Shown: positions 12,052 to 29,741 of the stretch, one piece after another | How positions within the stretch are numbered: position 1 is the first letter of the stretch | How the letters are laid out: each line of letters begins with the position of its first letter | Assembly: GCA_017503445.1 (NCBI GenBank) | Contig: JAFVTB010000065.1 | Coordinates: 1-31,309 of the forward strand | Origin: Clostridia bacterium | GTDB taxonomy: Bacteria; Bacillota; Clostridia; Christensenellales; UBA1242 | Length of the DNA stretch: 31,309 nucleotides | Direction: 5' to 3' | Notes under the pieces: generated by a model | Told to the model about the DNA's origin: nothing | Databases searched by the model: none | What the model saw: the letters and a program-made list of their open reading frames with translations, nothing else | Made by a program: the position numbers and the translations under genes

Positions 12052-12057
12052 TTTTTT

Positions 12058-12063
12058 CTCCTT
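12058..12063 (-). promoter_or_regulatory. Shine-Dalgarno (AAGGAG) of giant lipoprotein B
   Basis: Minus strand reads AAGGAG-AAAAAA-ATG (ATG at 12051). Confidence 0.8.
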
Positions 12064-12118
12064 CTCAAAGCCAAAAATTGTGTGTGATTGTAAGTTGTTT
12101 AAATTTATTCGTTTGTGT

Positions 12119-12688
12119 TTATTCAGTCGTGCTTGCAGGTTTGTATTGGAAAATTGTATAGGTTATATTTCCGGATGTGAATGTCATGCCATCGGTGTAT
12201 GGCTCTGCACTTTCAAAGATATATCCTTGGATATACACATCGCCGCTTTGCGGAACAAGATACATAAGAATGTTTGTGTCTTTTTGCCAGTGCAGGATTG
12301 CATACATTCTTTCATTGCCTGCGCCTGTCCATGTTGCAAACCAAACGGCTTTGCCTGTGTCGGCAAATTCTTGGGTATAAGTGTAGGTGCCGCGCATAAT
12401 GCTGTATTCGCCGTCCATTGGCGCATAGGTTGTGCCATTAAGGGTGATGCTTTCGCCGCTTTTCCAAACTGCCACTGTGTCACCAGAAATGATATCATCA
12501 TCAATATCCGGCGCGATTGAATCATAAGGTTCTTTATCTGGGAATGGAATTTGTGCAATCTTTGCAGCGTCGTCTGCAATTTGAATATTAAGCAGTTTAA
12601 ATGTGCTGTAATCTTCTGAAAGTTTATAATATGATTTAGTGCTGAAAATCTTGCCATCTGTGTTTGAAAGGTATATGCAAAACTTGGA
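12119..12688 (-). CDS. Giant lipoprotein A, C-terminal fragment (frame open for 189 codons; the ORF track calls only 12119-12475 from a GTG)
   Basis: After TAA at 12691-12689 the frame reads ...YLSNTDGKIFSTKSYYKLSEDYSTFKLLNIQIADDAAKIAQIPFPDKEPYDSIAPDIDDDIISGDTVAVWKSG...YKPASTTE*. There is no RBS before the GTG at 12475. Confidence 0.75.
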   Translation of the reverse strand, partial: SKFCIYLSNTDGKIFSTKSYYKLSEDYSTFKLLNIQIADDAAKIAQIPFPDKEPYDSIAPDIDDDIISGDTVAVWKSGESITLNGTTYAPMDGEYSIMRGTYTYTQEFADTGKAVWFATWTGAGNERMYAILHWQKDTNILMYLVPQSGDVYIQGYIFESAEPYTDGMTFTSGNITYTIFQYKPASTTE

Positions 12689-15600
12689 TTATTAAAATTA
12701 TCCTTTGTTGGGAAATCACATTTACTGCCACCAGCATAGTATGCTTTATAAGTTGCTAGAGAGTTTAATGTTATCCAACATTCACTTGATTGCACATTGT
12801 TTTTTAATGCTGTCCATTCGCTGGTGTTATAAAGTGGCTCAATGATTTTGCTCTCTTTGAATACTATTTCCCCACTTGATGTTATTTCAGGCACATAGTA
12901 ATAATACAAAGTTATAGGTTCGTCTTCTTTTGTTTCTTCATTATAATAAGTGCTTGGTCTTTCATAAATATGAATGTATGGACCGGTGAATGTGGTTCCT
13001 TCATTTGTTTCATTTGCCATAAAATAGAATGCTGGACAATAAATTGAAGAAGATGGCGAGTGTTGTTGAAGTTTTGTGCCTGCTGGGAAAAGAACAGTTG
13101 TTGAAGATGTGAGATGATAACTTGGATAATAACTTGCATTGTATTGTGCATAATGCATGGTTGTTGCAGCATTGCCAGTTTGAGTTGTTGAATCAGCTTT
13201 TGACCAATCTGTTGTAAGGACATAGTTACCTGCATCAGCAGAATTTGCCAAAGGTGTGAAACCATACTGGCTGCCGGTTTCATATTTATAATAATCGTTG
13301 CTTGCGTTTGCCGCACCCACAAGTTTGATGCCTTCTTTTTCTGCTTTTATCCATGCTTGGGTGCCGGCGGGATCATTTTTATAAATTTCTTCAAACAAAT
13401 TATTGATATCTTTTTTGCCGCCGTCTTCTGTATAGGTGAAGCTGTAGCCAAGTGCATAGGTTTTGTAAAGATTATCTGTATCTGTTTTATCTTCATCGGT
13501 TGTGAAAAGGTTAAATTCAACTTCGCCGCCACCGGTGATTGTGCCGCTGTTAAGGCATTTTTCAAGGGTTGATTCAGGTGACATAAATGCCGCAACACCC
13601 GCCGCATAAGCATTTTCAGTTTCTTTTGCATAATGCGCATAGGCATCATAACTGTAATATCCCCAAATGTTTTGCACATCATATCTGCTTGAACTGGTTA
13701 TAGCAAGTTGCGGTTTGGCCTTTGCGGTTACGGTGCCGCCATTTTCAACCAACTTAAAGGTTGTTTTATCGCTTGCATAACCCGCAATGCCCGCTGCATA
13801 AGCAGTTTCGGCACCTTTTGATGCCGCATTAACTTGCTGCACGCGTTTTTTCAGTTTTTCTTTGGTTTTATCTTGCTGATATTCATCATCGTTTTGAGAG
13901 TCATACCAGAAGAAATCGCGCGCAGTGAGTTTGTCTTTGCTGGCGATTGTTTTCCAGCCCGCTTGAACTATGGCGGTTGATTTGCACGCCTCTATTGTGC
14001 TGGTGCCTGAAACCTTGCCCACAACGCCGCCCGCATAAGATGCGGTTACAAGTGGCTTTTTCGCTTCATTGCCATCACCTTCGGTTGATATAATTCCGCT
14101 TATGTTGTTGTCATAATAATTATTTGTGCCGGTGATGTCTTGGCTGGCGCTGCCGGTGATTGTGATATCACTACCCAAGCCAACAATGCCGCCGGCGATA
14201 TATGTGCCGGTGATTTTTGTTACGCTTTGCACGGTGATATATGTAAAGGTTGCATCATTTGCGCTTCCCGCTACGCCGCCAACAGCAACACCGCTTGGCG
14301 CGCAAAGTTTGTCATAGGTTGCAAGTTCAGTTATATTGCCACCAATGGTGATATTGGTGAACTTGCCTTTTGCTTTACCGGCAATGCCGCCAACAAAGGC
14401 AACATCACTTGATGAAACGTTGCCTGTAAAGGTGGTGTTTGTGATTTGGCCATCATCTTCGCCAACCTTGCCCGCATCATAATCCCCAACAATGCCGCCA
14501 ACAAACAAATCGCTTCCTTTTTGTGATTTTTCAAGGTTTGCCGAAACGCTTGAGCTAATATTCACGCCAATAATGCTGAGGTCTTCACCCTTGCCCACAA
14601 GGCCGCCGGCAAAGCCGCCTGTTTTGATTTTGATTTCAAGGGTTGAGGTGCTTTCACCATCAATGGTTCCACTCATGCTTCCGGCAAAACCGCCAATATA
14701 TGATGTGGCTTTTTGTTCGACATCTTCTTTATTGCCGTCGGCATCTTCAACTTCTTTGGTTGGAATATCGCCTGTTTCAAGCGTGCCGCCGTCAATCTTG
14801 ACATTTGAAAGGGTTGAATTGTTTTCAATTTTGCCCGCAACGCCGCCTGCATAGGCAATGTTGCTTGAGTTAAATGAGGCGGTGAGATCTGGGTTTGAGA
14901 TTGTTACATTTTGAAGCGTTGAACCGGTGATATAACTTGCAACAGCGCCAATTTGTGTGCCTTCAAGCTTGATGCTTTCAATTGTTGCAGTATTAACTTC
15001 ACTGCCATCCAAATATCCTGCAAGACCACCAAGATGAATATCACTTTTTGTGTGATCGGTGATGGCAAGATTGTTTTTAACGGTTGTTACGCCACTGATA
15101 CCATTAAGCTTTGTTTGGTTTTGTGCAAAGCCCACAAGGCCACCAACTGTAAGCTCTGATGCATCTTGATTTTTTCCATCTTCCACACCAAAGATGAACT
15201 TATAAGATTGCAAATCAACATCTTTTGCATGAATTTCTGTGCCATTTGCATTGCCCACAATGCCACCAAGGTTTGACAAGCCAGCTTTTTCATTTGCGAT
15301 TGTTGCAGCAGGTGCAAAACCCTTGATTGTTGAACCCGCATCACTGCCGGCAATGCCGCCAGCAACAAGCGTGCCAACATTCTTTTGTGTGATGTTGATG
15401 CCCGTTACGGAAAGTGGGCTTTCACTTGCGCTTTCAATAACACTGTTCGCAAGCGTGCCCGCGATGCCACCAAGGCAGTTTTCTTCTGCGGTGGTTGAAT
15501 TTGATGTCAAGGTGATTATTTTTGCATTTGCCGAGAATGGAACTTGCACAGAATTATTGTTTTCATCTTCTGCATATGCTTTGCCAACACCACTTGCTGT

Positions 15601-18600
15601 GCCAAAGAAGCCACCAAAGGTGGTTTGTCCCGTGCCTGTTGATGTAAGCGATATATTATCAAGCGTGACATTGGTTGAAGAAATTGTTTGTGCATTGCCG
15701 GCAAGACCACCAAAGATTGCACTTGCACTGCCTGAGTTTGTGATTGAAATTTCACCCTTAAAGTTGATTTCGCTTGCAAACACATTGCTCACATTGCCCG
15801 CAAGGCCACCGCCAATATTTTCACCCGTGCCTGTGGCAACAATTTCAAAGCCATTTGCAAAGGTGATGCCTTTAAGCATTGTTGCATTTGTGCTTTGCAT
15901 GTTTGCAATCAGGCCACCAATGGTTGCGTTGGTTGATTTATCTGCCTGAAGCTTTGTGATTTCAAGGTTGATATTGGTGATTTTGCTGTCGTTGTCTGCA
16001 TCACTTGTTGCGCCAACCAAGCCCGCAAGCGCCACAGTGCCCGCAGCAGTTGATTTAACTACGCCGGCATCAAGTGTGATGTTGTCCAATGTTGTGCCAG
16101 AAATTTCTGTGGCAAGCCCAGCAAGGGTTTTTGCATTGATTTCAAGGGTTGAAGAATATTTGATTTCAAGGTTTGAAATGTTTGCATTTTCAACCTTTCC
16201 AAAAATTGCCCATTCAGTTCTTTCAATTGATGTTGTGAAATCTTGGATGGCATATTTGCCATCTTCGCCATACGCGCCAGAAAGTGTGCCCTTGAAGTTT
16301 GCAATTGGCGCCCAATCAATAACTGCAAAGTTTTTGTTGAACTGCTTATAGGTTTGTGCTTTCATTGTGGTAAACATTGATTTCATATCGTCCGTCACGG
16401 CCATATCGCAAATCAGTTGATAGTGCAAATTGTTTGTTGCAGCATCAGAAATTTGTTGAAGTTTGCCCACACTGCCGATAAACATTGGGTCATCTTCTGC
16501 GCCTGTTCCGGTTGCAATGCCGCGCATATAATCAAGGTTTGCATATGCGCTTGCTGCAAAGGTTGGATATCCAAAGTTTTCGCCAACAACATATGCAAAT
16601 TTTTTATCAGATTGCGCATTTTCAAACAACAGTTTTTTGTTTTCTGCGGTGTCAAGAACGCTGAAAGTTTTTGTGTCGGTGGTTTCGGTGGCAGATGATT
16701 TTTTGCCAACGGAATAAAGGTCATAGAAACTGTCAACAACGGTTTGGTTTGTGCCAAACACGCCCGCGGTGGCAGGTGAAGCCGTGTATGAAGAATACAC
16801 CGCGCCATCGCCCTGCGTGAACGCAAAGCCGCCATCAACATTGCCAACGGAATAAGTGCTGATGATGTTGCCGGAATTATATCCCGCAACACCGCCCGCA
16901 TTGCCGTTTGCGGTGATGTTGATTGCACTGAAGCTGTCCATAATCACACCGGTGTTATAACCCACAATTCCACCAACATATGCGCTGCCGGTGTGGGCCA
17001 AACTGGTGTGTTCGTGTGCAGAAATATTTGTGGTTTTCACCGCACACGCAAACACAAACCCATTGTTGATGTTTGCCACTGTGCCAACGGCGCTGGCGTT
17101 AAGATCTGATGATGTGGTTGGGGTGAGTTTTTCAATTGATGGAACAAGCGAAAGCCCTGAAATTGCACTTTTTTCATCAATGCTTGCAAAAAGCGTGCTG
17201 TGCGTGATGATTTGATGTCCATCACCCATAAGGTGTGCAAGCTTTCCATCAAGCGGGGTGATGTTTTGATCGTATGTGAATGGCCCTGTGATAAGCCCAA
17301 CAACTTTTTTGGTTTTTTCTGCCGCAAAGATTTCTGCCGCGTTTTGCATATCAGCCATTGAATCAATTTCAATTGGGTTCAGTTTTGTGCCTTCTTCAGG
17401 TTCGCCAAAAAGTGTGGCAATATATGGTTCAAGCAAATCAAGGATTGAAAACTGTGAAGCTTGTGTGGTTTGTTTGTAATAAAGATTTGTTGCGCCAATG
17501 CCATCGTTGAAATCAAGACAAAGCGACATTTGATGTGCATAGAAATTGCTTTCACTAGCAGCCGCTTTTGCGCCGTTTGCCTGGCCAACAAGGGCATTTA
17601 TATGCACGCCATCAAGCCCAGAAGCCGTTTTGCTTGCAAGCGAAACAAGACTTGTGTTGTTTGAAAGGGTTGTGCGATCGCTGCCCAAGCCAACAAGCCC
17701 ACCAACATAAACCTTAACGCCAAGCCCGTTTTGCGCATAATAATCATGCAACACATTGATGTCGCCAAGTGCCAAACAGTTTGAAAGCGTGACATTCGGT
17801 GCGGTGATTGAAGCTGCAGATTTACTGTTGCCAAGGATGCCGCCAATCCATGCATCACCTGTCATTTTGGAAAGGGTGATTTCCCCGTCGAAAACGGCAT
17901 TTTGAATAAGCGATTGCGAAAGGATGTTGGTGTCTGCCTTCAAGGCGCCAAGGATGCCGCCCGCGGCAATATTTTCACCAGAAACAATGATTTGCCCCGT
18001 ATATTTTGTGCCAAAGTTTTCATCGCCAAGCACAAGCGCGCCGCTTGTGGCGGTATAAGCGCCCAAGATGCCCCCAACAAACGCGTTTTGGCCAACAAAT
18101 TTCAAGTTTGTGTTTGAAACGGTGTTTGCAATTTCAATGCTTGAATTCAGTGTGCCAACAAGCCCACCAAGGTTTGTTTCAAGCGTGCCTTTTGCATTGA
18201 TTTCGCCAAAAGTTTCAAGGTTTTCAATTTTTGAAAGGTTTGCCGCAAGCCCAACAAGCCCGCCCGCATTTATTGTTTTTGCAACAAAGTTTGTACCAAC
18301 ATCGGTTGCAGCAAACTTGGTTGCACCTGTGGTTGTGTTTTGGATGCTTGCCGTGGTTTCAACCTTGCCAATAATTCCACCAAGGTTTGCCTGTGAAATG
18401 CTTGCAAAATTGCCAAGTGCATCACCCGTTTGATTGATGCCGCCAACCACTTGAAGTTTTTGGGTTTGTACCGTGCGTGCAAATGCCACTTTCATTGTGT
18501 TCACCTTGCCAAACAAAAGCCCCGCGTTGAATGTTTTTACATTTCCGCTTCCTGAAAGCGTCAGCACAGTGCCTTTTGGGTTTTGTGCGGTGGATGCGCC

Positions 18601-21600
18601 AAGATGATATTTTGCAAGTGTGCTTGTTGCAACGCCAATGCCTTTCACCAAATCACCTGCAGATTTTGATGAAAATGTTGTTGCAACATTGCCAATGGTT
18701 TCACCAAAGATTGCGCCAATGCTGATTTCAGTGTTTTCAAGGTTTGTGCCATTAAGATCCAATTGCACATTGTTTGTGCCGTTGTTTTGGAAATTGCTTT
18801 CACTTGAAGTTTGATAAACGCAAACATCAGTGATTTGACAAATTGCATTGCCAAGGGTTTGAAGTTGCCCTGCAACCATACCAACATTGATAAACGGCAG
18901 TTCATTTGCGTTGATGTTTTGTGCAACGCGCGCATCAACAACGCTGTCTTGCACGCTGATGCCATTCATATATCCGCCAACAAGTTTGTTTGCCAAAAGC
19001 CCAACATTGAAGTTTGTTTCAGAAATTTGTGTGGTGGCATAACAATCTTTAATCAAAATGTTTTCAAAAGATGTTTGGGTTGCGGTGTCGATGAATGCCT
19101 GGTTTTGTGAATTAAGTGCATTGCCTTTTCTGCCGATTTCTTGGATTGTAAGGTTATAAAAACTTGCGCCCGTGGTTGCCAAGATGAATGATGATTTTCC
19201 TTCAAAATCGAAACCATAATTTAAGCTGTTATCCATGCCTTTCAATGTGCCAGAGAAGTTTGCCAAAATCAAATTTGTGTTTTCAATATAATTTCCAACC
19301 GGGATGATTGTTGAAGGTTGATTAAGCCCGCGCACAATGAATGTTGCATATGGGTGATAAAGCATTTTTTGAAGGTCTGCCGCAACATCGATATAATAAC
19401 ACATTGATTCTGTGAATGTGACAAGTGATGGAAGAAGATCATTTGTTTGGGTGTAGCGAACCCAATAGTTTGAATCCCAGTTTGCCTGAATGAAATATGT
19501 ATCCATTGCAAGCCCATTTGTTGCGGGATCTGTTAAATCAAAATATGGTGTTACGGCCTGGGAAGAAATTTCTTCTGCACCAGTTTTTTGGTTTGTTTGA
19601 AGACCATAATATGGATCATAAACCAAATTATATGGCGCGCCGCCTTCCATAAATGCAAACGATGGTTTGATATATTCACTGATTGCATCGCTGCCGCTTG
19701 CAAACTTCACTTCTGTGATTGCAAACATATCTTCAGGATTGCTGGTGGTGATGATTTTTGGAAGGGCGTCTGTGCCGTTCATTGAAACAACATTGTTTTT
19801 CACGTCGTATGTTGCAAGGGTGTTCACATTGCCCGCGTTAGTTGCGCCATAAATTTGGAATGCGTTGTCAGGAATATGATATTCGCCATCTTTGTCAAGC
19901 ACAAGCCCCCAAAGGTTGACGGCATTGACTTTTGTCATAATCACTGTACGTGTGTTTTCAATGTATCCCACTGCACCGCCTGCAGCATCATTTGCCAAAA
20001 CATCACCAAAAGCGTATGTTTCAAAAAATGTGATTTTGTTGCGATCGTGCTTTGGGTTTTGGCAAGCGGAAATCTTGCCCACAAGGCCACCGGCAAAGTT
20101 TGAATTTGGATTTTTCACATTCAATTTTGAATATGAATGCTGAATTTCGCCGGTGATCAGGTTGCCCACAATGCCGCCAATTGCAACCGGCGCATATGTG
20201 CTGATGATATAGCCATCAGAAGTGTCGTCAAACAAATCAAGGTTGCCACGTTGAATATCATTTTCTGGGTTTTGATAATATGCTGAAACATTGTTTTCAA
20301 TTTGTTTTTGGGTGATGGCATCATGCTGTGCTTTTGCCATATCAATATTACCAAAACATTCACCCACAATGCCGCCCGCATAAAAATTGTATGCAACAAT
20401 TTTTGCAATATCGGCAGGGCTTTCGAATGTTGCATCGCGAAGATTTGCTTGTGGCCCCAAAAGCCCAATCACGCCACCCGCTGTGGATGCGCGAACCTGC
20501 ATATTGCCATTTGCCACAAGGTTTGAAAGATTTGAGGTTTGGGTTTCGGTTTTGCGGGCCCATGATGATTTTTCTGCGCTTGTAAAGATATCTGCAATGC
20601 CAATCACACCGCCCGCATAAGAAAGCGATTGATTTGTGATGCCGCGAACAAAGTTTTGCGAAGTTGTTGCCAGCGCATTTGCCTTGACGCCAAGTGATGT
20701 GATTGTGATATCCTTCACTTCACTTTGTCCGCTGACAAGCCCAACAAGCCCGCCAACAACATTGTTGCCCAAAATTGTGCTGTCGGCAATATCACTTTGA
20801 TTTTTGATTGTGATTGAAAGAATCTTAGAGTTTTCAACCGTGCCGGCAAGTGTGCCAACAAAGCGCACTTGTTTTGCACTTACGGAAACAACACTTATGC
20901 TGAGGTTTTTTATGCAGGCGTTGTTTTGAAGCGCCTTGAAAAGCCCAAAGTTTTCAATCACGGTGTCAGAATTTGCCGTAAGGTCAAGCCCTGAAATCAT
21001 AAGCATATTGCCATCCAAAACGCCGCCATCAAGCGTCATGTTGGTTGAACTTATGCTTGCGGTTTGGCTGTTGTCAGGATTAAGGTCTTGCAAATTGATG
21101 TTTGAAATTATGCGATAATTGCCAAACACAGTTTGCTGGCCAAGGTTGTAATATTGCGAAATTGCTGTGCCGGCGTTTTCGTGATCACCACCCACAGCGC
21201 GATTGAATTCGGCAGCTGTGCGAATGATGATTGGGTTGATTTGGCTGCCATATTCATATCCCGCGGTGTATGGCAGGTTGTATGAAAGCAATTCGCCCGT
21301 GATTTCATCGCGTTTTTCATTGGCGATGTATCTGTTTGAAACTGCGATTTGGTTTGCAGAAACAAGGTCAATACCATATCCGGTTGAAAACCACACGCCA
21401 TTCACAGATGTGGCACTGTCGGCAAAACTGAAGCCATAGAAATTATCTGGATTATTTGGCTCTGCCACACGCACAACATTAAGGTTTGCAGTTTGATTTG
21501 AATATGCATCGCCTTCAATTGTGTCAGCGTTGTAATAATATCCATTTTTGATTGTGCCGGTGTTCAAAAGGTTGCCGGCATCATCAACGCCCACAAATGC

Positions 21601-23907
21601 CATTTGTGTGGTTTTGGCGTTTTCAATTTTGCTGGCGGTGAAGCAACTGGTGATTTTGCCCATATTGCTGTGCACAAAGCCCGCAGACAAACGGCCACTT
21701 TGCGCCAAATCTTGACTTGCAAGCAAGATGTTTGCATAGCAGTTAGAGATTTCGCCATTATTAATCGCAATAAATCCCGCACCCGTGCCGGCGGTGGTGA
21801 TGCCCTTGCCAAGCAAGGTGAACGCATCTTCACCCGTGCCTTTTGCATAACTTGTGGTGATGGTGCCGGTGTTGTATCTTGCAAAGCCACTGGTGGTTGA
21901 AGAAAGGGTGCCAATTGTGGCGTTTGTAAGCGTGCCATTTGCAAAGAAACTGCTTGAAATTGTGCCGCTGTTGGTGTCCACAAATCCGCTGATGTTGCCC
22001 TGGGCGGTGATGTCAAAAACTTCAAGACGGGCGGCTTTGCCATTAACTTTTTCAAGGGTTGTGCCACCCACACGGCTGTTGGTGATGAAGCCATTGTTTG
22101 TGACAACAAACCCGGCGGTGATGCTTATGAATGTGTCTGTGATATTGCCGCCATAAGAAACATCAATGCCTGCGTTTGCGCTTTGATTTTCTGCATATGC
22201 CACAACTTGGCAGTTGTATATAATGCCATCATTGGATATTGCCAGCCCCGCAACCCTGAGTTCATCAACAACGTTTGTATTTACATCAATTTGATTATCG
22301 CCATAAAGGTTGATTGTCAGGTTCTTAAGGGTGGTGTTTTGGGCAACATTATCAAAAAGTGCAAGTGAAAGACTGTTTGATTCAGTTTCAGTGTTGAAAG
22401 ATTTGATATGAATTGTGAAGTTGTTGCCATCAAGACTGTTAATGGCATTGGTTGAAAGCGGTGAAACATTTTCAAGATACAAATCATTCATAAGAATATA
22501 ATCTTGTGGTGTATCGCTTTCAAAAGCGTCATAGAATGCTGTTTCATTGTCAATAATCAGTGGCAAATCTTCATCACTGAACGGTGCAACAACAATCGTG
22601 AAATCAAAAGAAATTTCATAAAGGTTTGTGATTGTTGTGTGCGGATATTGAATTTGCATCACAAAGCGCAAATTCACTTCGCCCTGGCGCTTGCCAATGA
22701 TTTTTATTTGGCCGTTTTCTTCTGTGAAAGTGAAATAGTTGTTTGGTTCAAAGCTTCCATCATCATTCAAAAGTGCATATTGGGTTGAGCCGTTGACATA
22801 GTAAAGATTGCCCAAAAAGCTTGCTTTGCCCGCCTTGCCAACATTCACCACATAATTGCCATAACTGTTTGTGTTTGACAAACTTTCATAATAAAAGTTT
22901 TGAAGGAACGCTTGGAAAGAAGGGTTTTGATTGGTGTTGCTTTTGCCATCAAAATCAAAGTTTAAGATGTTTTGCACACCGATGTATGAATAAAATGTTG
23001 ATTTATCTGCTTTGTCTGTCAGAAGCGTGATTTGGTCAACCTTGAAATCAACAATGCCAACTTCACATGTGCTGACTTTTCTTTGCATTTTTCCATTTAC
23101 GATCCAAGAGGTTGTAACCTCGATGGTGATATAATTTTCTGCATTGTCAAGTTGTGCTTCGCTGCCCACTTCCAGTGCATAAGCATAGGTGCGTGTTAAA
23201 GAAAATGCATCTTCAATGATTTGTGTGCGTGTCAGGGAAATTGATTTTTCTGCACCACCAAGCCCATTTGTCACGCCCAAAATATTCACAAAATCAAGTG
23301 TAAGGTTTTGTTCCTTTGGAAGAGTGATCAAAAGTGTTGATGTTGTGCCGCGCGCCACAGTTGAAACGCTGTTGCCAGCATTATCCACAATTTGGATCAT
23401 TGCATCTTCAAGATATTCAACCACCAAATTGAATGACGAAACCTTTTGATTGTTTGCCACAAGATTGATGTCAAACACAGCATCTTTGTTTGTTGAAATT
23501 GGAAGATATGTGCCAAGATAAAGCGTTGTTACGGCATTTGTGTTTGCCGCGTCAACACCAAAAATTCTTATGCCATTTTCAAGGGTTTGCACGCGCTTAT
23601 GTGATTGACGGAATCCCGCATTGCCGTTTTGCGGATTGACATATTTTTCCATGAATGCCAGTGCAAGGGACAGATCTTGCCCATTTTGTTGAGTGTAGGT
23701 GATGTCAAGATAATCCCATGTTGCAAAGCTTGGATATATATCAATTTGCAAAAGCCCTTCTTCGCCAGGAGCAATAATGTTGTTTGAATTTTTTGTGTTG
23801 TATTCATAAAACACAAAGTTTGTGTTTTGGGTTTGGTCAAGAAGCACAGATTTGTTTTGAATTTCAAAATGATTGATTGTAACAGAAAGAATTTCTTGGT
23901 TATTCAC
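12184..23907 (-). CDS. Giant lipoprotein A, central fragment (3,907-aa ORF): Ig-like segments plus five GLUG-type beta-helix modules; the last ~160 codons are off-frame
   Basis: No signal peptide or RBS at the GTG 23907, and the frame is open upstream to 24075. Dozens of GG[ILV]VG rungs. Module motifs FSDEDLPLIIDNETAF, YGSQINPIIIRTAAEF, YYIDVAADLQKM, EGTKLNPIEIDSMADM, GTGAEDDPMFIGSVGKL. Confidence 0.85.
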   Translation of the reverse strand: MNNQEILSVTINHFEIQNKSVLLDQTQNTNFVFYEYNTKNSNNIIAPGEEGLLQIDIYPSFATWDYLDITYTQQNGQDLSLALAFMEKYVNPQNGNAGFRQSHKRVQTLENGIRIFGVDAANTNAVTTLYLGTYLPISTNKDAVFDINLVANNQKVSSFNLVVEYLEDAMIQIVDNAGNSVSTVARGTTSTLLITLPKEQNLTLDFVNILGVTNGLGGAEKSISLTRTQIIEDAFSLTRTYAYALEVGSEAQLDNAENYITIEVTTSWIVNGKMQRKVSTCEVGIVDFKVDQITLLTDKADKSTFYSYIGVQNILNFDFDGKSNTNQNPSFQAFLQNFYYESLSNTNSYGNYVVNVGKAGKASFLGNLYYVNGSTQYALLNDDGSFEPNNYFTFTEENGQIKIIGKRQGEVNLRFVMQIQYPHTTITNLYEISFDFTIVVAPFSDEDLPLIIDNETAFYDAFESDTPQDYILMNDLYLENVSPLSTNAINSLDGNNFTIHIKSFNTETESNSLSLALFDNVAQNTTLKNLTINLYGDNQIDVNTNVVDELRVAGLAISNDGIIYNCQVVAYAENQSANAGIDVSYGGNITDTFISITAGFVVTNNGFITNSRVGGTTLEKVNGKAARLEVFDITAQGNISGFVDTNSGTISSSFFANGTLTNATIGTLSSTTSGFARYNTGTITTSYAKGTGEDAFTLLGKGITTAGTGAGFIAINNGEISNCYANILLASQDLAQSGRLSAGFVHSNMGKITSCFTASKIENAKTTQMAFVGVDDAGNLLNTGTIKNGYYYNADTIEGDAYSNQTANLNVVRVAEPNNPDNFYGFSFADSATSVNGVWFSTGYGIDLVSANQIAVSNRYIANEKRDEITGELLSYNLPYTAGYEYGSQINPIIIRTAAEFNRAVGGDHENAGTAISQYYNLGQQTVFGNYRIISNINLQDLNPDNSQTASISSTNMTLDGGVLDGNMLMISGLDLTANSDTVIENFGLFKALQNNACIKNLSISVVSVSAKQVRFVGTLAGTVENSKILSITIKNQSDIADSTILGNNVVGGLVGLVSGQSEVKDITITSLGVKANALATTSQNFVRGITNQSLSYAGGVIGIADIFTSAEKSSWARKTETQTSNLSNLVANGNMQVRASTAGGVIGLLGPQANLRDATFESPADIAKIVAYNFYAGGIVGECFGNIDMAKAQHDAITQKQIENNVSAYYQNPENDIQRGNLDLFDDTSDGYIISTYAPVAIGGIVGNLITGEIQHSYSKLNVKNPNSNFAGGLVGKISACQNPKHDRNKITFFETYAFGDVLANDAAGGAVGYIENTRTVIMTKVNAVNLWGLVLDKDGEYHIPDNAFQIYGATNAGNVNTLATYDVKNNVVSMNGTDALPKIITTSNPEDMFAITEVKFASGSDAISEYIKPSFAFMEGGAPYNLVYDPYYGLQTNQKTGAEEISSQAVTPYFDLTDPATNGLAMDTYFIQANWDSNYWVRYTQTNDLLPSLVTFTESMCYYIDVAADLQKMLYHPYATFIVRGLNQPSTIIPVGNYIENTNLILANFSGTLKGMDNSLNYGFDFEGKSSFILATTGASFYNLTIQEIGRKGNALNSQNQAFIDTATQTSFENILIKDCYATTQISETNFNVGLLANKLVGGYMNGISVQDSVVDARVAQNINANELPFINVGMVAGQLQTLGNAICQITDVCVYQTSSESNFQNNGTNNVQLDLNGTNLENTEISIGAIFGETIGNVATTFSSKSAGDLVKGIGVATSTLAKYHLGASTAQNPKGTVLTLSGSGNVKTFNAGLLFGKVNTMKVAFARTVQTQKLQVVGGINQTGDALGNFASISQANLGGIIGKVETTASIQNTTTGATKFAATDVGTNFVAKTINAGGLVGLAANLSKIENLETFGEINAKGTLETNLGGLVGTLNSSIEIANTVSNTNLKFVGQNAFVGGILGAYTATSGALVLGDENFGTKYTGQIIVSGENIAAGGILGALKADTNILSQSLIQNAVFDGEITLSKMTGDAWIGGILGNSKSAASITAPNVTLSNCLALGDINVLHDYYAQNGLGVKVYVGGLVGLGSDRTTLSNNTSLVSLASKTASGLDGVHINALVGQANGAKAAASESNFYAHQMSLCLDFNDGIGATNLYYKQTTQASQFSILDLLEPYIATLFGEPEEGTKLNPIEIDSMADMQNAAEIFAAEKTKKVVGLITGPFTYDQNITPLDGKLAHLMGDGHQIITHSTLFASIDEKSAISGLSLVPSIEKLTPTTSSDLNASAVGTVANINNGFVFACAVKTTNISAHEHTSLAHTGSAYVGGIVGYNTGVIMDSFSAINITANGNAGGVAGYNSGNIISTYSVGNVDGGFAFTQGDGAVYSSYTASPATAGVFGTNQTVVDSFYDLYSVGKKSSATETTDTKTFSVLDTAENKKLLFENAQSDKKFAYVVGENFGYPTFAASAYANLDYMRGIATGTGAEDDPMFIGSVGKLQQISDAATNNLHYQLICDMAVTDDMKSMFTTMKAQTYKQFNKNFAVIDWAPIANFKGTLSGAYGEDGKYAIQDFTTSIERTEWAIFGKVENANISNLEIKYSSTLEINAKTLAGLATEISGTTLDNITLDAGVVKSTAAGTVALAGLVGATSDADNDSKITNINLEITKLQADKSTNATIGGLIANMQSTNATMLKGITFANGFEIVATGTGENIGGGLAGNVSNVFASEINFKGEISITNSGSASAIFGGLAGNAQTISSTNVTLDNISLTSTGTGQTTFGGFFGTASGVGKAYAEDENNNSVQVPFSANAKIITLTSNSTTAEENCLGGIAGTLANSVIESASESPLSVTGINITQKNVGTLVAGGIAGSDAGSTIKGFAPAATIANEKAGLSNLGGIVGNANGTEIHAKDVDLQSYKFIFGVEDGKNQDASELTVGGLVGFAQNQTKLNGISGVTTVKNNLAITDHTKSDIHLGGLAGYLDGSEVNTATIESIKLEGTQIGAVASYITGSTLQNVTISNPDLTASFNSSNIAYAGGVAGKIENNSTLSNVKIDGGTLETGDIPTKEVEDADGNKEDVEQKATSYIGGFAGSMSGTIDGESTSTLEIKIKTGGFAGGLVGKGEDLSIIGVNISSSVSANLEKSQKGSDLFVGGIVGDYDAGKVGEDDGQITNTTFTGNVSSSDVAFVGGIAGKAKGKFTNITIGGNITELATYDKLCAPSGVAVGGVAGSANDATFTYITVQSVTKITGTYIAGGIVGLGSDITITGSASQDITGTNNYYDNNISGIISTEGDGNEAKKPLVTASYAGGVVGKVSGTSTIEACKSTAIVQAGWKTIASKDKLTARDFFWYDSQNDDEYQQDKTKEKLKKRVQQVNAASKGAETAYAAGIAGYASDKTTFKLVENGGTVTAKAKPQLAITSSSRYDVQNIWGYYSYDAYAHYAKETENAYAAGVAAFMSPESTLEKCLNSGTITGGGEVEFNLFTTDEDKTDTDNLYKTYALGYSFTYTEDGGKKDINNLFEEIYKNDPAGTQAWIKAEKEGIKLVGAANASNDYYKYETGSQYGFTPLANSADAGNYVLTTDWSKADSTTQTGNAATTMHYAQYNASYYPSYHLTSSTTVLFPAGTKLQQHSPSSSIYCPAFYFMANETNEGTTFTGPYIHIYERPSTYYNEETKEDEPITLYYYYVPEITSSGEIVFKESKIIEPLYNTSEWTALKNNVQSSECWITLNSLATYKAYYAGGSKCDFPTKDNFNNPSFAYTFQTQMARFSALNHIINFQKITAHLNCLIFKLQTTLQRLHKFHSQIKNLMIQSRRILMMISFLVTQWQFGKAAKASPLMAQPMRQWTANTALCAAPTLIPKNLPTQAKPFGLQHGQAQAMKECMQSCTGKKTQTFLCILFRKAAMCISKDISLKVQSHTPMA

Positions 23908-23957
23908 CGTGATTACAAATGGTTTATATACAAGGTTAAAGCCAAAATTTTGCTGAT

Positions 23958-26900
23958 TTAAAAGTGCGGTTTTTGATGTGATTGCAAATTCAAATGTTGC
24001 GTTTGCAAAATCTTGGGCACGATATTCTTGATTGATTGAAAACTTAACTTCAAAGTTATAAACAAATATTTTGCATCAGCACTGTCCGACAACATGGTTT
24101 GCAAATCCGCGCTTGTATAAAATTTGGTTTCAAGAAGGTTTATTTGATAATCAAACAAATTGCTTGGGAATGTGCCAAAGGTTTGTAAAACAATTTCCAA
24201 TCCTTCACCGTCTTCAAGTTTCACATCTGTGAAAATTTGCACATTCAAAGTTGTGATATCCGCCGGCTGCATTATGGCATCTGCTGCAGAAATTTCAATT
24301 TTATCCGCACCGCGATAAACATTGATTGTGAATTTGCCTGAAAATTTGTTGCCCAAAATTTCGTTAAGGATATCATCTGTGTTTGTGCCGGCAATGTTAA
24401 GTGTGTAGGTGATTTGTGTTTTTCCATCTGCAAGTGTTGCAGTTGACACCGTGAATGGGCCACTTCCGCTGCCGGTGATTGCCAAGTTATCAAACAAAAC
24501 ATCAAAATCTTGGGTGACAAAATCAATCATTCGCGCATCCAAAACTTTGCTTTGGGCAATTGAAACATTAAAGCCCGCGCCCGCTGATGTTTTCACATTC
24601 AAAACAAAGTTTTGCGCATATTGATTTACACCAACAATAAAAGTTGGATTTTTGATTGGGTTAATAACAAAAATTTCAAAGGTTTTAAGCACTTCGGCGT
24701 TATATTTTGAATAAAATGTCACTTGCGCCGCGCCGGTGCCAACAATTTGCAAGCCAACAGGCGTTGCCGCAATCACCGCCGCATTGTTTGAAAATGCCCT
24801 TATGCCAAACGCGTTTTCAAACAAATCTTCAAACGCAACAAAGTTCAGGTTTGCAAGTGCCAATTTTTCAACATTTGAAAGTGTTTCTGCAGTTTGCCAA
24901 AACATCAAAATTGCCTTTTGATTGGCACTGATGAAATCACCAGCAAACATGTCCGGAATTTGGGTGATTGGCGCCGTCAGTTTCACCGCTTTGAAAACAG
25001 GAAGCGTTCCGCTGGCATCCCAAACATCGTTTGTCTTGATTGCGGCAAGATCACCAGCAGCCCCGGTGTTTTCGATTTTGACAAAGTTATAAAAATATGT
25101 GCCAAGCATCGCCGCATCATCGGCCGCTTTGTATGTGATATATGCATTTTCAACAAACAAGTTTTCTGTTCCAGACATTTGTGCAAACATATCTTTTTGA
25201 TTTTGCACAAAGCCAAAAGATGTGTTGACCTTGCCCCCAAAAATTGCCCCCACAAGCACACCAACTTTGCCACCTTGCAAAAGTTGGGTTGCTTTTTCAA
25301 GCGGGATATATGATTGGATATATGAATTTGTCAGTTCGCCATCGGTCAGTTTGCCCACAAGGCCACCAACAGTTGCGGCGGCGCCATCAATTTTGCCAAG
25401 TTGGGTTTGGGCACCTTGGGTTTCAACATATGCACAAAGTTCAACTGCGCAAAAATCAATTGTGCCGCGGTTTTCACCCGCGATGCCGCCAACACTTTGT
25501 GTTGATAAAAGATTTTCACCAATTATTTGCCCGGCAAATGTTGTGTTTTTGATGCTGCCCGCATTGATGCCAACAATGCCACCAATGGCTTGACTTTGAC
25601 TTTCAGCCAACAGCACACTTGGTTTGGCGAACGCGCCAGTTTGCTGCTGGGCATCAACAACAACATTTTGGATAAGCCCATTGTTTTCTGTTGCAACAAA
25701 TCCTGCGCCTGCCACTTCACCACAAATCATAAGATCTGCAATAACAGCTTTTTCAGAAAGTGTGCCAAAAAGCGGCAAAGTTGTTGTGATGATGGCTTTT
25801 TCGCCACCTTCAACAAGCGCGCCATAAAGCCCGCCGGCAAAATTTGCGCTGATTGCAAAAGATTCATCAAGTGCGCTTGCACTGTTGACTATGATATTGT
25901 CAACAAGTGTGAAATGCAGGTGCTGCATCTGATTTGGATTTTGTGCATAAGCTTCAAAATCTGAAAGCGATGACACGCGGAAAGATGTTTCGCGGCTTTG
26001 GCCATCGGCAACCACCAATGTGAAATAAAGCGCGATATCATTTGCACCAGGGGCATATTGATTTTGGGCATTATATCTGTCTGCAGGTGCGATGCGAATT
26101 TGCCCATAAGTGCCTTCTTTGGCATTTGCGGCAACGGTTAAAAGCCCGGTGGTTTTATTCAGGGAAATTGCACTTGCAGGCGCAGTGATGTATGGCAAAA
26201 ATTCATAAACCAAATTGGTGTTATGCGGCATTTTGCCACCTTCACCCACTTGCACATTTGCCACAATTTGGCGGGTGATTGCCTTGCCGTCATATGTAAG
26301 GGGGATATAAATGCCTGTGTCAAGATTGACATTGTGCGCAACAATTTTTTCCACCTGCACCGCACGCGTGATTTTCACAATCACTGAAAGGCGATATTCG
26401 GTGTTGAACTCTTTGATAAGTGCTGTGAACGCAAATTCCACTTCATCTGCCAAAACAGGATTGCCCGCATCATCATAAATCCAAGTTGAAAGGGCGGTGA
26501 TTGACAGGGTTTTGTTATTATCACTGATTTGGGTTTTGTAAACATCTTTACCATTCACTTGATAAAGCGGGCTGGCGCCAAGCCATGTAATGTTTTGATA
26601 TGTCGCATTATTCAAACTTACCACAACATCGGCCGCGGTTTTGTGATAATCTTCAAACCCAACACTTGCCTGGCTGAACAAATTCAGTGCATAAGTTGAA
26701 AGGGCAAAATTTTGCACAGGAACATATCCTTCCACAAGGAAATAATATTTGTATTGCACTTCGCCAAGTTGAAAAATTGTTTTGCCATTTAAGGTTGTTT
26801 CTTCAAGCTTTAATCCTTTTGCAACAACTTGCACCCAAGCTTTGCCAACGGTGGCGGGCTTGATTTGATCAAGCGCCAAAAACTTGGTGTCAAGCACGTT

Positions 26901-28922
26901 GCTTGTTGTTTCATAGGCCAAACCGCTTGGGTTTGCTTGGTTTTCGGCAAAAAAGTTTTCATAATCCGTTTGGTTGTCATCGGATTTTATTATATCAAAA
27001 AATCCATATTCCACACCTGTAACACCAAGCCCTTCACGCGTAAGGGTGATGCTTGCACCCTTGGTGATTGCCACGCGGAATTGCCACGCAGCATCATTTT
27101 GACGTTCCATAAATCCAACTGCGGAATTTGTTTGCGCAGAAGGAACAAAAAACTGCACTTCATCTTCCACAAGCTCATAAATCACGCGCACAAATGCCTG
27201 CACAAAATATCCGTTTGCTTGGCGCAAAGTTATTGTGGCTGTGCCTTCCTTGCCTAAAACACTTTGGATTGTAAACTGGAAGAAATCTGTTTGTGCGATT
27301 GGGGCGCTGGTGATTTGGATCACGCTTCCACTTTGTTCAACAGAAAGGCCACGAAGATCCACCGTGTCGGCCGTGAACTGCACAACTTGCGTCATCACTT
27401 GATTGCTTTTAAGATTGTAATAATACATCACTTCGCCATTTGGGGCGGTGATTGTTTCACTGGCATTAATAAAACTCATTTCTGTTGTGCCTGCAGCGGC
27501 GCTGAACGTCAGCACTTGCTTCACAACAGGGTTTTCTTTTGCATAAATCTTCACCTGTCCGGCAAGGGCATTATGTGTGCTTGCCTTAACAAAGATTTTG
27601 CTGTCGCCACTAAACTCAACCTTTCCATCAACAAACTCAAGACCTTGTCCGTCTTCATCAAAAAATTGATATGCGCCCGCATTCACGCCAAGCTCCAAAA
27701 CCAAAAATTTTTCGGCATCTGAAACTGTTGTTGGCAAAACATTGAATGAAAGTTCAAGCCCAAGTTTGTTTTTGTATTCGTTATAAACGGTGAACTGGGT
27801 TTGATTTGAAAGTATGCCATCAACAAACAGTTGGATTTTATTCACGGTGTCCTTCACCACAACTTCAATTGGCTTGGTTGTGAAAGAAAAATCAAAATCG
27901 TTGTATTTGGCCACAAAGCAAATATCATCTTTGCCAAGGGCATCTTCCGCAGAAAGTTCAAACACATATTGTGTTGCCACAAGGTTTCCGTTGCCGTCAG
28001 TAACTTCGGTTTTCTTGCCAATTGCAAAACTGATGTATTTTGATTGTTGACCATTAGTGCTTAAAACATATGGGGTGATTGTAAGCGGCTTGTTTGATTG
28101 CACTTCAATCATAAATTCCACAGATTGCCTTGCCGCAAGGTTTGCGGAAAGTTCAATTGTTTTTGGAAACTCGTCTGTTCCTGGCTGATAAATTGGTTCA
28201 AGTTCCACGCCCGCGTATGTGATTGACTGCACAAGCACAGAATTTTCATCAAGCGGCGCCAAGACATCAACCGTCAAAATTACATCACTGCCCGCAAGGT
28301 GCGGACTTGTGGCACGAATGTCCACCGTTGGTGCGGCATAATCCTTGCCCACCAAAATCATCCCATTTGCAAGGGATATATTTGGATTTGGCACAACAAG
28401 TTCAAAATCCAAAGTTTTTTGAGTGGTGTTTGATGGTGTGAAAGCCACAAGATTTGCGCTTGCCAAATTTTTGGCTTGTCCCTTCACCACAAAAAATTGA
28501 TCCAAAGCTGATGCAGGGGAAATCATCTGCACCGGCACTTCAACCGTTACGGTGAATGTTGCACTTTTGCCGCCCTCAAGGGTTTTCACCTCCACAACCG
28601 CATTTGTGCAAACCGCACTTGCCGAGATTGAAATAACCGTTTCCTGCTGATCATTCATGCTTGTGGTGATGTTCAGTTGGGTGGCATCGGTGCTGACAGA
28701 CAATTCACGGCTTATACCTTCTGCCCCCTCCACCATCGCAATAACCTCTTTAACCTCCGAAACACCGTTTTCAATTTTCAGCACGATTTCAGAAACCGAA
28801 AGATTGACTTTCAGGTTTTCATATTTATCGCCACAGCCGGACAAACTTGCACCAAAAAACATCAGCGCAAAGCACGCCAAAAAGCCCAAAAAAACATTTG
28901 TGATTTTTGCAATTTTTTTCAT
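23958..28922 (-). CDS. Giant lipoprotein A, N-terminal fragment (1,654-aa ORF): lipoprotein signal, Ig-like repeats, first GLUG-type module; the last ~36 codons are off-frame
   Basis: GAGGGT RBS at 28936-28931. Signal MKKIAKITNVFLGFLACFALMFFGAS-LSGC with canonical lipobox Cys30. Rungs such as IGGIVGINAGSIKN and VGGIAGENRGTID. The N-terminus resembles giant B (GC.GDKYENLKVNLSVSEIVL vs AC.TPNYDNVSMSLSTNKIEM). Confidence 0.88.
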   Translation of the reverse strand: MKKIAKITNVFLGFLACFALMFFGASLSGCGDKYENLKVNLSVSEIVLKIENGVSEVKEVIAMVEGAEGISRELSVSTDATQLNITTSMNDQQETVISISASAVCTNAVVEVKTLEGGKSATFTVTVEVPVQMISPASALDQFFVVKGQAKNLASANLVAFTPSNTTQKTLDFELVVPNPNISLANGMILVGKDYAAPTVDIRATSPHLAGSDVILTVDVLAPLDENSVLVQSITYAGVELEPIYQPGTDEFPKTIELSANLAARQSVEFMIEVQSNKPLTITPYVLSTNGQQSKYISFAIGKKTEVTDGNGNLVATQYVFELSAEDALGKDDICFVAKYNDFDFSFTTKPIEVVVKDTVNKIQLFVDGILSNQTQFTVYNEYKNKLGLELSFNVLPTTVSDAEKFLVLELGVNAGAYQFFDEDGQGLEFVDGKVEFSGDSKIFVKASTHNALAGQVKIYAKENPVVKQVLTFSAAAGTTEMSFINASETITAPNGEVMYYYNLKSNQVMTQVVQFTADTVDLRGLSVEQSGSVIQITSAPIAQTDFFQFTIQSVLGKEGTATITLRQANGYFVQAFVRVIYELVEDEVQFFVPSAQTNSAVGFMERQNDAAWQFRVAITKGASITLTREGLGVTGVEYGFFDIIKSDDNQTDYENFFAENQANPSGLAYETTSNVLDTKFLALDQIKPATVGKAWVQVVAKGLKLEETTLNGKTIFQLGEVQYKYYFLVEGYVPVQNFALSTYALNLFSQASVGFEDYHKTAADVVVSLNNATYQNITWLGASPLYQVNGKDVYKTQISDNNKTLSITALSTWIYDDAGNPVLADEVEFAFTALIKEFNTEYRLSVIVKITRAVQVEKIVAHNVNLDTGIYIPLTYDGKAITRQIVANVQVGEGGKMPHNTNLVYEFLPYITAPASAISLNKTTGLLTVAANAKEGTYGQIRIAPADRYNAQNQYAPGANDIALYFTLVVADGQSRETSFRVSSLSDFEAYAQNPNQMQHLHFTLVDNIIVNSASALDESFAISANFAGGLYGALVEGGEKAIITTTLPLFGTLSEKAVIADLMICGEVAGAGFVATENNGLIQNVVVDAQQQTGAFAKPSVLLAESQSQAIGGIVGINAGSIKNTTFAGQIIGENLLSTQSVGGIAGENRGTIDFCAVELCAYVETQGAQTQLGKIDGAAATVGGLVGKLTDGELTNSYIQSYIPLEKATQLLQGGKVGVLVGAIFGGKVNTSFGFVQNQKDMFAQMSGTENLFVENAYITYKAADDAAMLGTYFYNFVKIENTGAAGDLAAIKTNDVWDASGTLPVFKAVKLTAPITQIPDMFAGDFISANQKAILMFWQTAETLSNVEKLALANLNFVAFEDLFENAFGIRAFSNNAAVIAATPVGLQIVGTGAAQVTFYSKYNAEVLKTFEIFVINPIKNPTFIVGVNQYAQNFVLNVKTSAGAGFNVSIAQSKVLDARMIDFVTQDFDVLFDNLAITGSGSGPFTVSTATLADGKTQITYTLNIAGTNTDDILNEILGNKFSGKFTINVYRGADKIEISAADAIMQPADITTLNVQIFTDVKLEDGEGLEIVLQTFGTFPSNLFDYQINLLETKFYTSADLQTMLSDSADAKYLFITLKLSFQSIKNIVPKILQTQHLNLQSHQKPHF

Positions 28923-28993: not shown

Positions 28994-29483
28994 ATTAAAT
29001 GCCCGCAAAGTTTGACATTTTTCGCCCAAAATGGCGTTATTTTATGTTGTGCAAAAGCATCAAAAAAATTGCATGTTTTTTGGGTGGAATTTTTGAATTT
29101 TTAAAGCATTTTTCCATGCACTAAAAAATTTTTACCATTTTTGAAAAAGTTTTTTTGAATATAATTCTTTGTTTTTTATTATAAAAACATTTATTTTTAT
29201 TTTATTTTTTGCATTTTTATTTATTTTTTTGCAAAAAAAACAAAATTTGTTTTAAGCAAACCGATTTCACAAAAACAAAATCATGCTTTTGTTTTTACAA
29301 TAAAAAAAATGCCCAAAATCTTCAGAAATTTTGGTAATTTTTTTGGCTTAAGAAAACATAAAAACACACGTTTCTTTTTTTATAAAACTCTTAAGAAAAT
29401 TAAAAACTTTTGCGAAAAAAATTGATAGTTTTTTATATAAAAAAAACACATTTTTTTATCATTAAGAAATAATAAAAACAATT

Positions 29484-29741
29484 TTATTTTTTATTAAGAT
29501 TTAAAAATTTTTTCTTGGTGGCCAGGCCGCCACGAATGTGCTTTTCTGCAAAATTTTTTGCCAAAACAAATTGCACTTTTTGATAAAGCGCAAAATCAAT
29601 TTTTTGAAGCTTTTTGGACACATCATTATGCACAGTGCTTTTGCTGATTCCATAAACATCTGCAGTTTGGCGCACCGTTTGATTGGTTTGTATGATATGC
29701 TTTGCAAGACTTATCGCGCGTTGTTTTAAGATTATATTCAA
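29484..29741 (-). CDS. spoIIID: Stage III sporulation transcriptional regulator SpoIIID, 85 aa
   Basis: TVRQTADVYGISKSTVHNDVSKKL (HTH) and AEKHIRGGLATKKKF match the SpoIIID family signature. Start placed at TTG 29741 behind GGAGG (29753-29749); the ORF track starts at 29795. Confidence 0.93.
   Translation of the reverse strand: MNIILKQRAISLAKHIIQTNQTVRQTADVYGISKSTVHNDVSKKLQKIDFALYQKVQFVLAKNFAEKHIRGGLATKKKFLNLNKK

Follow-up and report, generated by a model that had tools for sequence, protein, structure and literature searches.

The window analysed here is the whole 31,309-nucleotide (nt) contig JAFVTB010000065.1, the longest contig of GCA_017503445.1, a ruminant-gut, Christensenellales-like metagenome-assembled genome (MAG) of a Clostridia bacterium. 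Its minus strand carries two long open reading frames (ORFs), of 1,654 amino acids (aa; hereafter ORF A) and 3,907 aa, that overlap in different frames. We show that these two ORFs are one gene, here called giant A, which encodes a protein of about 5,600 aa and is interrupted by the loss of one base from a short run of T. It is followed by giant B, a 3,251-aa paralogue whose likeness to giant A is confined to the signal peptide and repeat modules. The features on which the argument rests are as follows.

12119–28922, minus strand: the giant lipoprotein gene, giant A, of 16,804 nt, or 5,601 codons when two missing bases are counted.
23958–28922, minus strand: ORF A as found, 1,654 aa, with its stop codon at 23960–23958.
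23958–24075, minus strand: the overlap of 118 nt in which both frames are open, which is the extent of the feature under study.
24064–24066, minus strand: the run of three T (T3) that marks the break, A3 on the plus strand; intact conspecific sequences all have four T (T4).
12672–24066, minus strand: the native middle part of the gene in the downstream frame, to which orthologues align from its first codons and in which single-nucleotide polymorphisms (SNPs) are mostly synonymous.
23905–23907, minus strand: GTG, the listed start of the 3,907-aa ORF, an internal Val of the intact gene (KPFVITVNNQ) and also internal in the conspecific protein P0004.
23915, minus strand: a SNP linked to T3, GTA (Val) in two T3 sequences and GAA (Glu) in three T4 MAG contigs, giving KPFVITV and KPFEITV, respectively.
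12671–12672, minus strand: a second single-base deletion, TATACC in the window and TATAACC elsewhere.

At the break the minus strand reads GAT GCA AAA TAT TTG TTT ATA ACT. The downstream frame is open from 24075, directly after a TGA at 24078–24076, to 12184, and reading T3 as T4 at 24066–24064 fuses the two ORFs. Alignment with orthologues places the break at one codon boundary, between Tyr (TAT, 24068–24066) and the Phe that follows it: at the junction the nearest relative has GAKYFAYVFKVKL, and the window supplies DAKY in the upstream frame followed by FVYNFEVKF in the downstream frame. The junction of the intact gene reads DAKYFVYNFEVK. The native residues of ORF A are the first 1,619, ending with this Tyr; its last 35 residues (LFITLKL...KPHF) are off-frame, have no counterpart among relatives in the orthologue alignment and end in the stop codon. 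GAGGG precedes the ATG of ORF A at 28922, and AAGGAG precedes the ATG of giant B at 12051. No purine-rich Shine–Dalgarno (SD) sequence precedes the GTG at 23907 (upstream sequence aaaccatttgtaatcacg), and the 3,907-aa ORF has no signal peptide. We also considered genetic code 4; the long frames contain no TGA and the change would only add spurious ORFs, so translation table 11 is correct.

The relatives of this organism encode the protein in one frame. Over the first 700 codons of the downstream frame, all seven same-genus genomes and several members of the same family give matches that begin at residue 2–7 and contain no stop, and the same-genus matches sit within open frames as long as 5,631 aa. 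The relatives' loci are open in the same frame over the full 1.5 kb upstream of the junction. We counted stops in the 350 codons centred on the junction in 18 relatives and found none in any of the 18; at 57% identity a goat-colon 'Clostridia bacterium' MAG marks one end of this set, and Christensenellaceae-labelled MAGs at ~26% mark the other. Two separate proteins with a conserved stop, the arrangement by which a preliminary description of this contig proposed that a natural gene boundary would be recognized, thus occur in none of these relatives. That description had also drawn support from the continuity of the paralogue giant B at this point, but the match to giant B is not significant at the junction (BLASTP 21 bits, E 0.87), and it is the orthologues that carry the case.

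ORF A begins with the sequence MKKIAKITNVFLGFLACFALMFFGASLSGC, in which a lipoprotein signal and an LSGC lipobox can be read by eye. The basic n-region, hydrophobic h-region and lipobox [LVI][ASTVI][GAS]C are all present by the same reading, and the sequence is identical in the full-length conspecific forms, which are 5,636 aa long and share the N-terminus MKKIAKITNVF...LSGC. Most of giant A has no Pfam match, and no match to Big_2 was found in Pfam. The GLUG family (PF07581, gathering score 20.5 bits) scores 22.3 bits with the segment 900–1654 and 17 bits with the whole of ORF A, and downstream segments score 20.1, 15.6 and 11 bits, under the gathering score; a further match, to the repeat part, or N-terminal region, of Peptidase_M26_N, is weak. 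Language-model neighbours in a protein atlas are Big_2 and GLUG clusters, of which the Big_2 clusters score 0.94–0.96. An AlphaFold2 model of the 350-residue junction segment of the nearest relative, built from an 18-sequence alignment, has a mean predicted local distance difference test (pLDDT) value of 77. Foldseek matches this model to tandem immunoglobulin (Ig)-like ectodomains, such as those of receptors, and S-layer proteins (E ~1e-4, with low template-modelling (TM) scores of 0.2–0.28), and also to pilins. A predicted strand (170–181) of a well-modelled, β-rich domain begins at the break, and the model thus places the break inside a folded β-sandwich domain rather than in a linker. Because of the lipobox, the Ig-like fold at the junction and the GLUG and Big_2 matches from Pfam and the language model, giant A is best read as a putative lipid-anchored stalk-and-repeat surface protein, with predicted Ig-like β-sandwich domains followed by GLUG-type repeats. 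Its architecture suggests a role in adhesion or in a surface layer. The GLUG matches, the Big_2 and GLUG neighbours and the Ig-like junction fold liken it to GLUG and Peptidase_M26_N-like surface proteins with Big_2-type stalks, from which it differs in having no peptidase domain, in its unusual size for a genome of ~1 Mb (~5,600 aa) and in its lipoprotein anchor, which is unusual as well.

Sequences from the same species show the missing base directly. About 20 public runs contain the locus, and we compared the window over 11900–24700 with Logan contigs from four of them, which are animal-gut metagenome runs from four studies. All four have an A inserted behind 24063 on the plus strand, in contigs that bridge the site by hundreds of bases, carry 2–5 other differences per 1–2.8 kb and are 99.8% identical in their flanks. 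This base is the only indel within about 11 kb on either side in the metagenome runs, which contain three indels in total; the second, at 12671, is described below, and the third is a single extra A in one run (X9), near window 12100 in the intergenic spacer between giant A and giant B. T4 is also found in three NCBI MAG contigs (from GCA_017506385.1, GCA_017516685.1 and GCA_017506755.1). Over 21.9 kb, GCA_017506385.1 differs from the window by 113 substitutions and by two gaps only, a T at 24066 and an A at 12672.

Protein records give the same result. A word-index search for homologues of residues 1250–1633 returned, in the 'longer' length class, one cluster, which was the source of the conspecific set; in the class of 909–2,895 aa it returned no matches. 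The 90% protein cluster that holds the window's products contains two full-length proteins of 5,636 aa (P0007 and P0015: MBO5310379.1 and an ENA entry), together with partial proteins from three further NCBI MAGs and from one more record. Six conspecific proteins are uninterrupted across the junction (DAKYFVYNFEVKF; SADAKYFVYNFEVKFSINQEYRAQDFANATFEFAI). The conspecific sequences with the extra T read DAKYFVYNFEVKFSINQEYRAQDFANATFEFAI, letter for letter the reading that the preliminary description had reconstructed from one missing T at 24066–24064. A pattern scan of JGI metagenome contigs gave no matches for either allele, and none of the RNA runs contains the stretch.

T3 is present in one other assembly. 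The two products of the ENA contig XIEF21-1_SAMN15830008 scaffold_3280 (29.8 kb) are exactly 1,654 and 3,907 aa long and differ from those of the window at 3 and 12 residues, respectively. This contig has T3 at the break and no gaps relative to the window over 29270–11184, and it also carries the deletion at 12671/12672. The two contigs differ at 52–53 sites per ~15 kb and match exactly from 24284 to 23022. Searching public assemblies, other than the window's own records, for the exact 1,654-aa product gave no match.

The second deletion puts the last ~185 codons of giant A off-frame, and the true C-terminus is encoded in the other frame as far as 12119, where the gene ends with a TAA stop at 12121–12119. 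A T is inserted behind 12671 in all three metagenome runs that cover the site (X1, X2 and X3), and GCA_017506385.1 has the corresponding extra A.

We judge it probable, with some reserve, that T3 is a real strain-level truncation allele, because a non-identical ENA assembly shares with the window T3, the 12671/12672 deletion and the SNP at 23915. A de Bruijn assembler would be expected to output T3 twice only if T3 dominates the reads, and T3 is presumably present in the reads of the source sample.

A sequencing or assembly artefact is the strongest alternative. The organism would then carry T4, both deletions would arise from read errors, duplicates or low-coverage consensus, and the second assembly would reuse the same reads. 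Several observations speak for such an origin and weigh against a real allele. Every other conspecific sequence examined but one has T4, and no relaxed constraint is visible downstream of the break. The MAG (867 kb, 89% complete) is also a poor assembly, fragmented into 183 contigs with an N50 of 6.4 kb and with 6.7% contamination. We surveyed it for further frameshifts by comparing the stop-to-stop ORFs of a same-genus MAG (G004, 916 kb) and of part of another (G003) with the whole window MAG by tblastn. The first 136 kb contained no true frameshift, and after extension to ~378 kb of non-redundant conserved sequence outside the window contig there were three true single-base deletions, as follows.

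Contig C179, ~934: a deletion in thrS, TCA(A)CT, giving FELS|TMPESHIG.
Contig C69, ~15600: a deletion in clpP, A7 to A6.
Contig C107, ~9976: a deletion in rplN at its 3′ end, CTA(G)CTCC, by which L14 and L24 become a single in-frame ORF of 300 aa.

Because thrS and rplN are both single-copy in the window MAG, their deletions can hardly be real and are almost certainly errors. The MAG thus has a deletion rate of about 1 per 100 kb, and the reciprocal survey of the same-genus MAG G004, over the same ~377 kb, found no single-base deletions. Other candidates in the survey (C107 1000–1732, C24 ~5640, C3 ~7500, C121 ~4680 and C98 ~3400) proved to be antisense shadow ORFs or intergenic indels, and those raised by the reciprocal survey (on C4, C117 and C167) were dismissed on the same grounds.

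The independence of the second T3 assembly also bears on this question. The study of sample SAMN15830008 relied on Illumina NovaSeq reads, which were assembled with MEGAHIT both sample by sample and in co-assemblies, and it binned contigs from 1.5 kb upwards (PMC8199421), a cut-off that agrees with the shortest contigs of the window MAG. The same study probably also produced the window MAG; the ENA contig and the MAG may have reads in common, and they are not demonstrably independent. A comparison of five haplotypes over 8.5 kb (window 15817–24284) gives a star-like pattern with 29–42 pairwise differences and many incompatible site patterns, and the five conspecific sequences have clusters of 5–10 SNPs within 40–100 nt at ~21121–21160 and ~17995–18094. 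These mosaic patterns point either to strains that have recombined or to consensus contigs that are chimeric or mosaic. With 32 differences between them over the 8.5 kb, against 29–42 from T4 sequences, the T3 pair is overall no more closely related to each other than to T4 sequences, and this distance pattern fits mosaic consensus contigs as well as it fits recombination.

Against an artefact, both deletions recur in an assembly from another pipeline that differs at ~0.35% of sites, and because de Bruijn assemblers retain the path with higher coverage, most of the reads would be expected to carry T3. The same sequence context has been assembled correctly in at least 10 other assemblies. Two deletions within 16.8 kb exceed the rate of the MAG (P = 0.017 for at least two of five events in 4.3% of the sequence), a value qualified by the lower sensitivity of detection outside the window and by the fact that the window was noticed owing to its breaks. 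The exact rplN–rplX fusion product is recorded solely on the window MAG's own contig, although an exact look-up may overlook a near-identical broken product; the broken products of thrS and clpP are cut by contig ends and are of no use for such a look-up. Taking both sides together, we regard an artefact as a possible origin of T3 that stops short of being likely.

The break is thus not an old pseudogene, nor is it clearly an assembly error private to this MAG. With the frameshifted pseudogene alleles of large surface proteins in host-associated bacteria, and with the indel errors of MAGs, it shares the loss of a single base from a short homopolymer, an off-frame tail on the N-terminal fragment, a remainder without a start and intact alleles in conspecifics. 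It differs from them in that both deletions recur in a second, non-identical assembly and in that the downstream frame is undecayed. The preliminary description had named as the likeliest causes a deletion introduced by sequencing or assembly, or an inactivating mutation of recent date, a choice that accords with the single frame of relatives and conspecifics.

Functional recoding would allow the T3 allele to yield the full-length protein by −1 slippage, for example of the P-site tRNA-Lys on A AAA to give ...DAKIFVYNF.... The required shift is indeed −1, an A4 run (GCA AAA) lies one codon upstream, the T3 haplotype occurs in two assemblies and the downstream differences are mostly synonymous. 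However, this A4 run is all that the zero frame (GCA AAA TAT TTG TTT ATA) offers, which contains no X XXY YYZ heptamer, and there is no SD-like stimulator upstream of the break. The 88 nt downstream fold with a minimum free energy of −10.3 kcal/mol, against a mean of −9.84 for shuffled sequences (z = −0.18), and 83 of 200 shuffles fold equally well. The shift is not conserved in the 18 relatives and most conspecifics, the second deletion, at the non-slippery TATACC, would have to be bypassed as well, and recency or mosaic contigs account for the excess of synonymous differences. Programmed −1 frameshifting, as in dnaX, the transposases of IS elements and the phage tail chaperone G/GT, has in common with this locus the direction of the shift and a frame overlap such as the ~118 nt seen here, but here there is no heptamer, hairpin or pseudoknot and orthologues are in frame. 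We therefore agree with the preliminary description in setting programmed recoding aside as very improbable.

Slipped-strand phase variation is useful only in tracts of at least about 7–8 nt. The locus resembles phase-variable contingency loci in that a homopolymer within a surface-protein gene changes length and both states are present in the population, but its tract is only 3–4 nt long and the second deletion lies in an AA dinucleotide. A phase-variable tract was rejected, as the states are T3/T4 and A1/A2 only, where about 7 nt or more would be required. The break is a plain deletion, with no recoding signals and outside any phase-variation tract. A natural arrangement of two genes, a 1,654-aa lipoprotein and a 3,907-aa protein started separately at the GTG at 23907, is scarcely credible: both ORFs are long and stand as separate proteins in public records, but relatives have no stop or start at the junction, the break lies at the start of a β-strand within a confidently modelled β-sandwich domain, the second ORF has neither SD sequence nor signal peptide and the last 35 residues of ORF A are unmatched in relatives.

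Past the break, the downstream frame continues for 3,963 codons without a stop. When the 40 listed SNPs relative to other samples are read in the restored frames, 30 prove synonymous, among them 5 of the 6 that lie past the second break. A decayed pseudogene was rejected on the basis of this open frame, these synonymous SNPs and the lack of relaxed constraint. The downstream SNPs are mostly synonymous, and any inactivation is therefore recent.

If T3 is a real allele, translation from the ATG at 28922 would leave the native frame past residue 1,619 and stop 35 codons on. The remaining ~3,980 codons would be neither made nor exported, because they have no ribosome-binding site and no signal peptide, and the truncated stump of 1,619 residues would be the sole product. 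The 12671/12672 deletion lies on the same sequence as T3. T3 would then be a truncation or null allele of recent origin, carried in the DNA of a sub-population alongside the intact allele of most conspecifics.

The distal end of the gene varies in other ways among conspecific sequences. At window 12347–12349 the codon is GCC (Ala) in the window, GAA (Glu) in the runs X1–X3 and the ENA contig, and a TAA stop in GCA_017506385.1 (its contig ~11936), which truncates the protein 74 codons before its natural end. In GCA_017506755.1 (protein P0004) the nucleotide alignment ends at ~13198, and the distal ~350 residues are strongly divergent (window ~12560–13198); over the 11 kb before them, identity to the window is 99.5%. 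From these alignments, the distal tip of the giant protein looks like an exchangeable cassette. A low-depth contig (4.4) in X1 and X2 skips 96 nt before the terminal mini-domain (window 12549–12646), at a joint whose shorter side is only 25 nt and which may be spurious. Lengths of non-coding homopolymers also vary: GCA_017516685.1 has two extra T and one T fewer at window 29446–29478, upstream of the gene. The gene upstream of giant A is called SpoIIID (PF12116) in the same MAG (contig 1–237, equivalent to window ~29500–29720), a neighbour consistent with a reduced spore-former of the Clostridia.

T3 and the 12671/12672 deletion might also form a circulating haplotype in which the exposed distal ~4,000 residues have been lost and the lipid-anchored stump of 1,619 residues kept, and which persists next to intact alleles in ruminant-gut populations under selection by, for example, phage or host antibody. 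We consider such selected loss rather unlikely. If it has occurred, the nonsense codon of GCA_017506385.1 and the swapped distal tip of GCA_017506755.1 would be further outcomes of the same pressure.

In summary, the feature is an ordinary one-base deletion, and its biological interest is modest unless the truncation allele proves to be maintained. Its effect on annotation is the one foreseen in the preliminary description, that the giant gene is hidden: in public records, one surface protein of ~5,600 aa is replaced by a lipoprotein of 1,654 aa and an orphan of 3,907 aa that has no signal peptide. The MAG appears to be the entry for its species in a one-genome-per-species collection, through which the split could propagate. 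Given the single-base deletions in essential genes of this MAG, claims of frameshifts made from it need support at the level of reads. Giant A accounts for about 2% of a genome of ~0.9–1 Mb. If the T3 allele is real, it would be a naturally truncated form of a giant host-facing protein and would be useful for studying the function of the distal modules.

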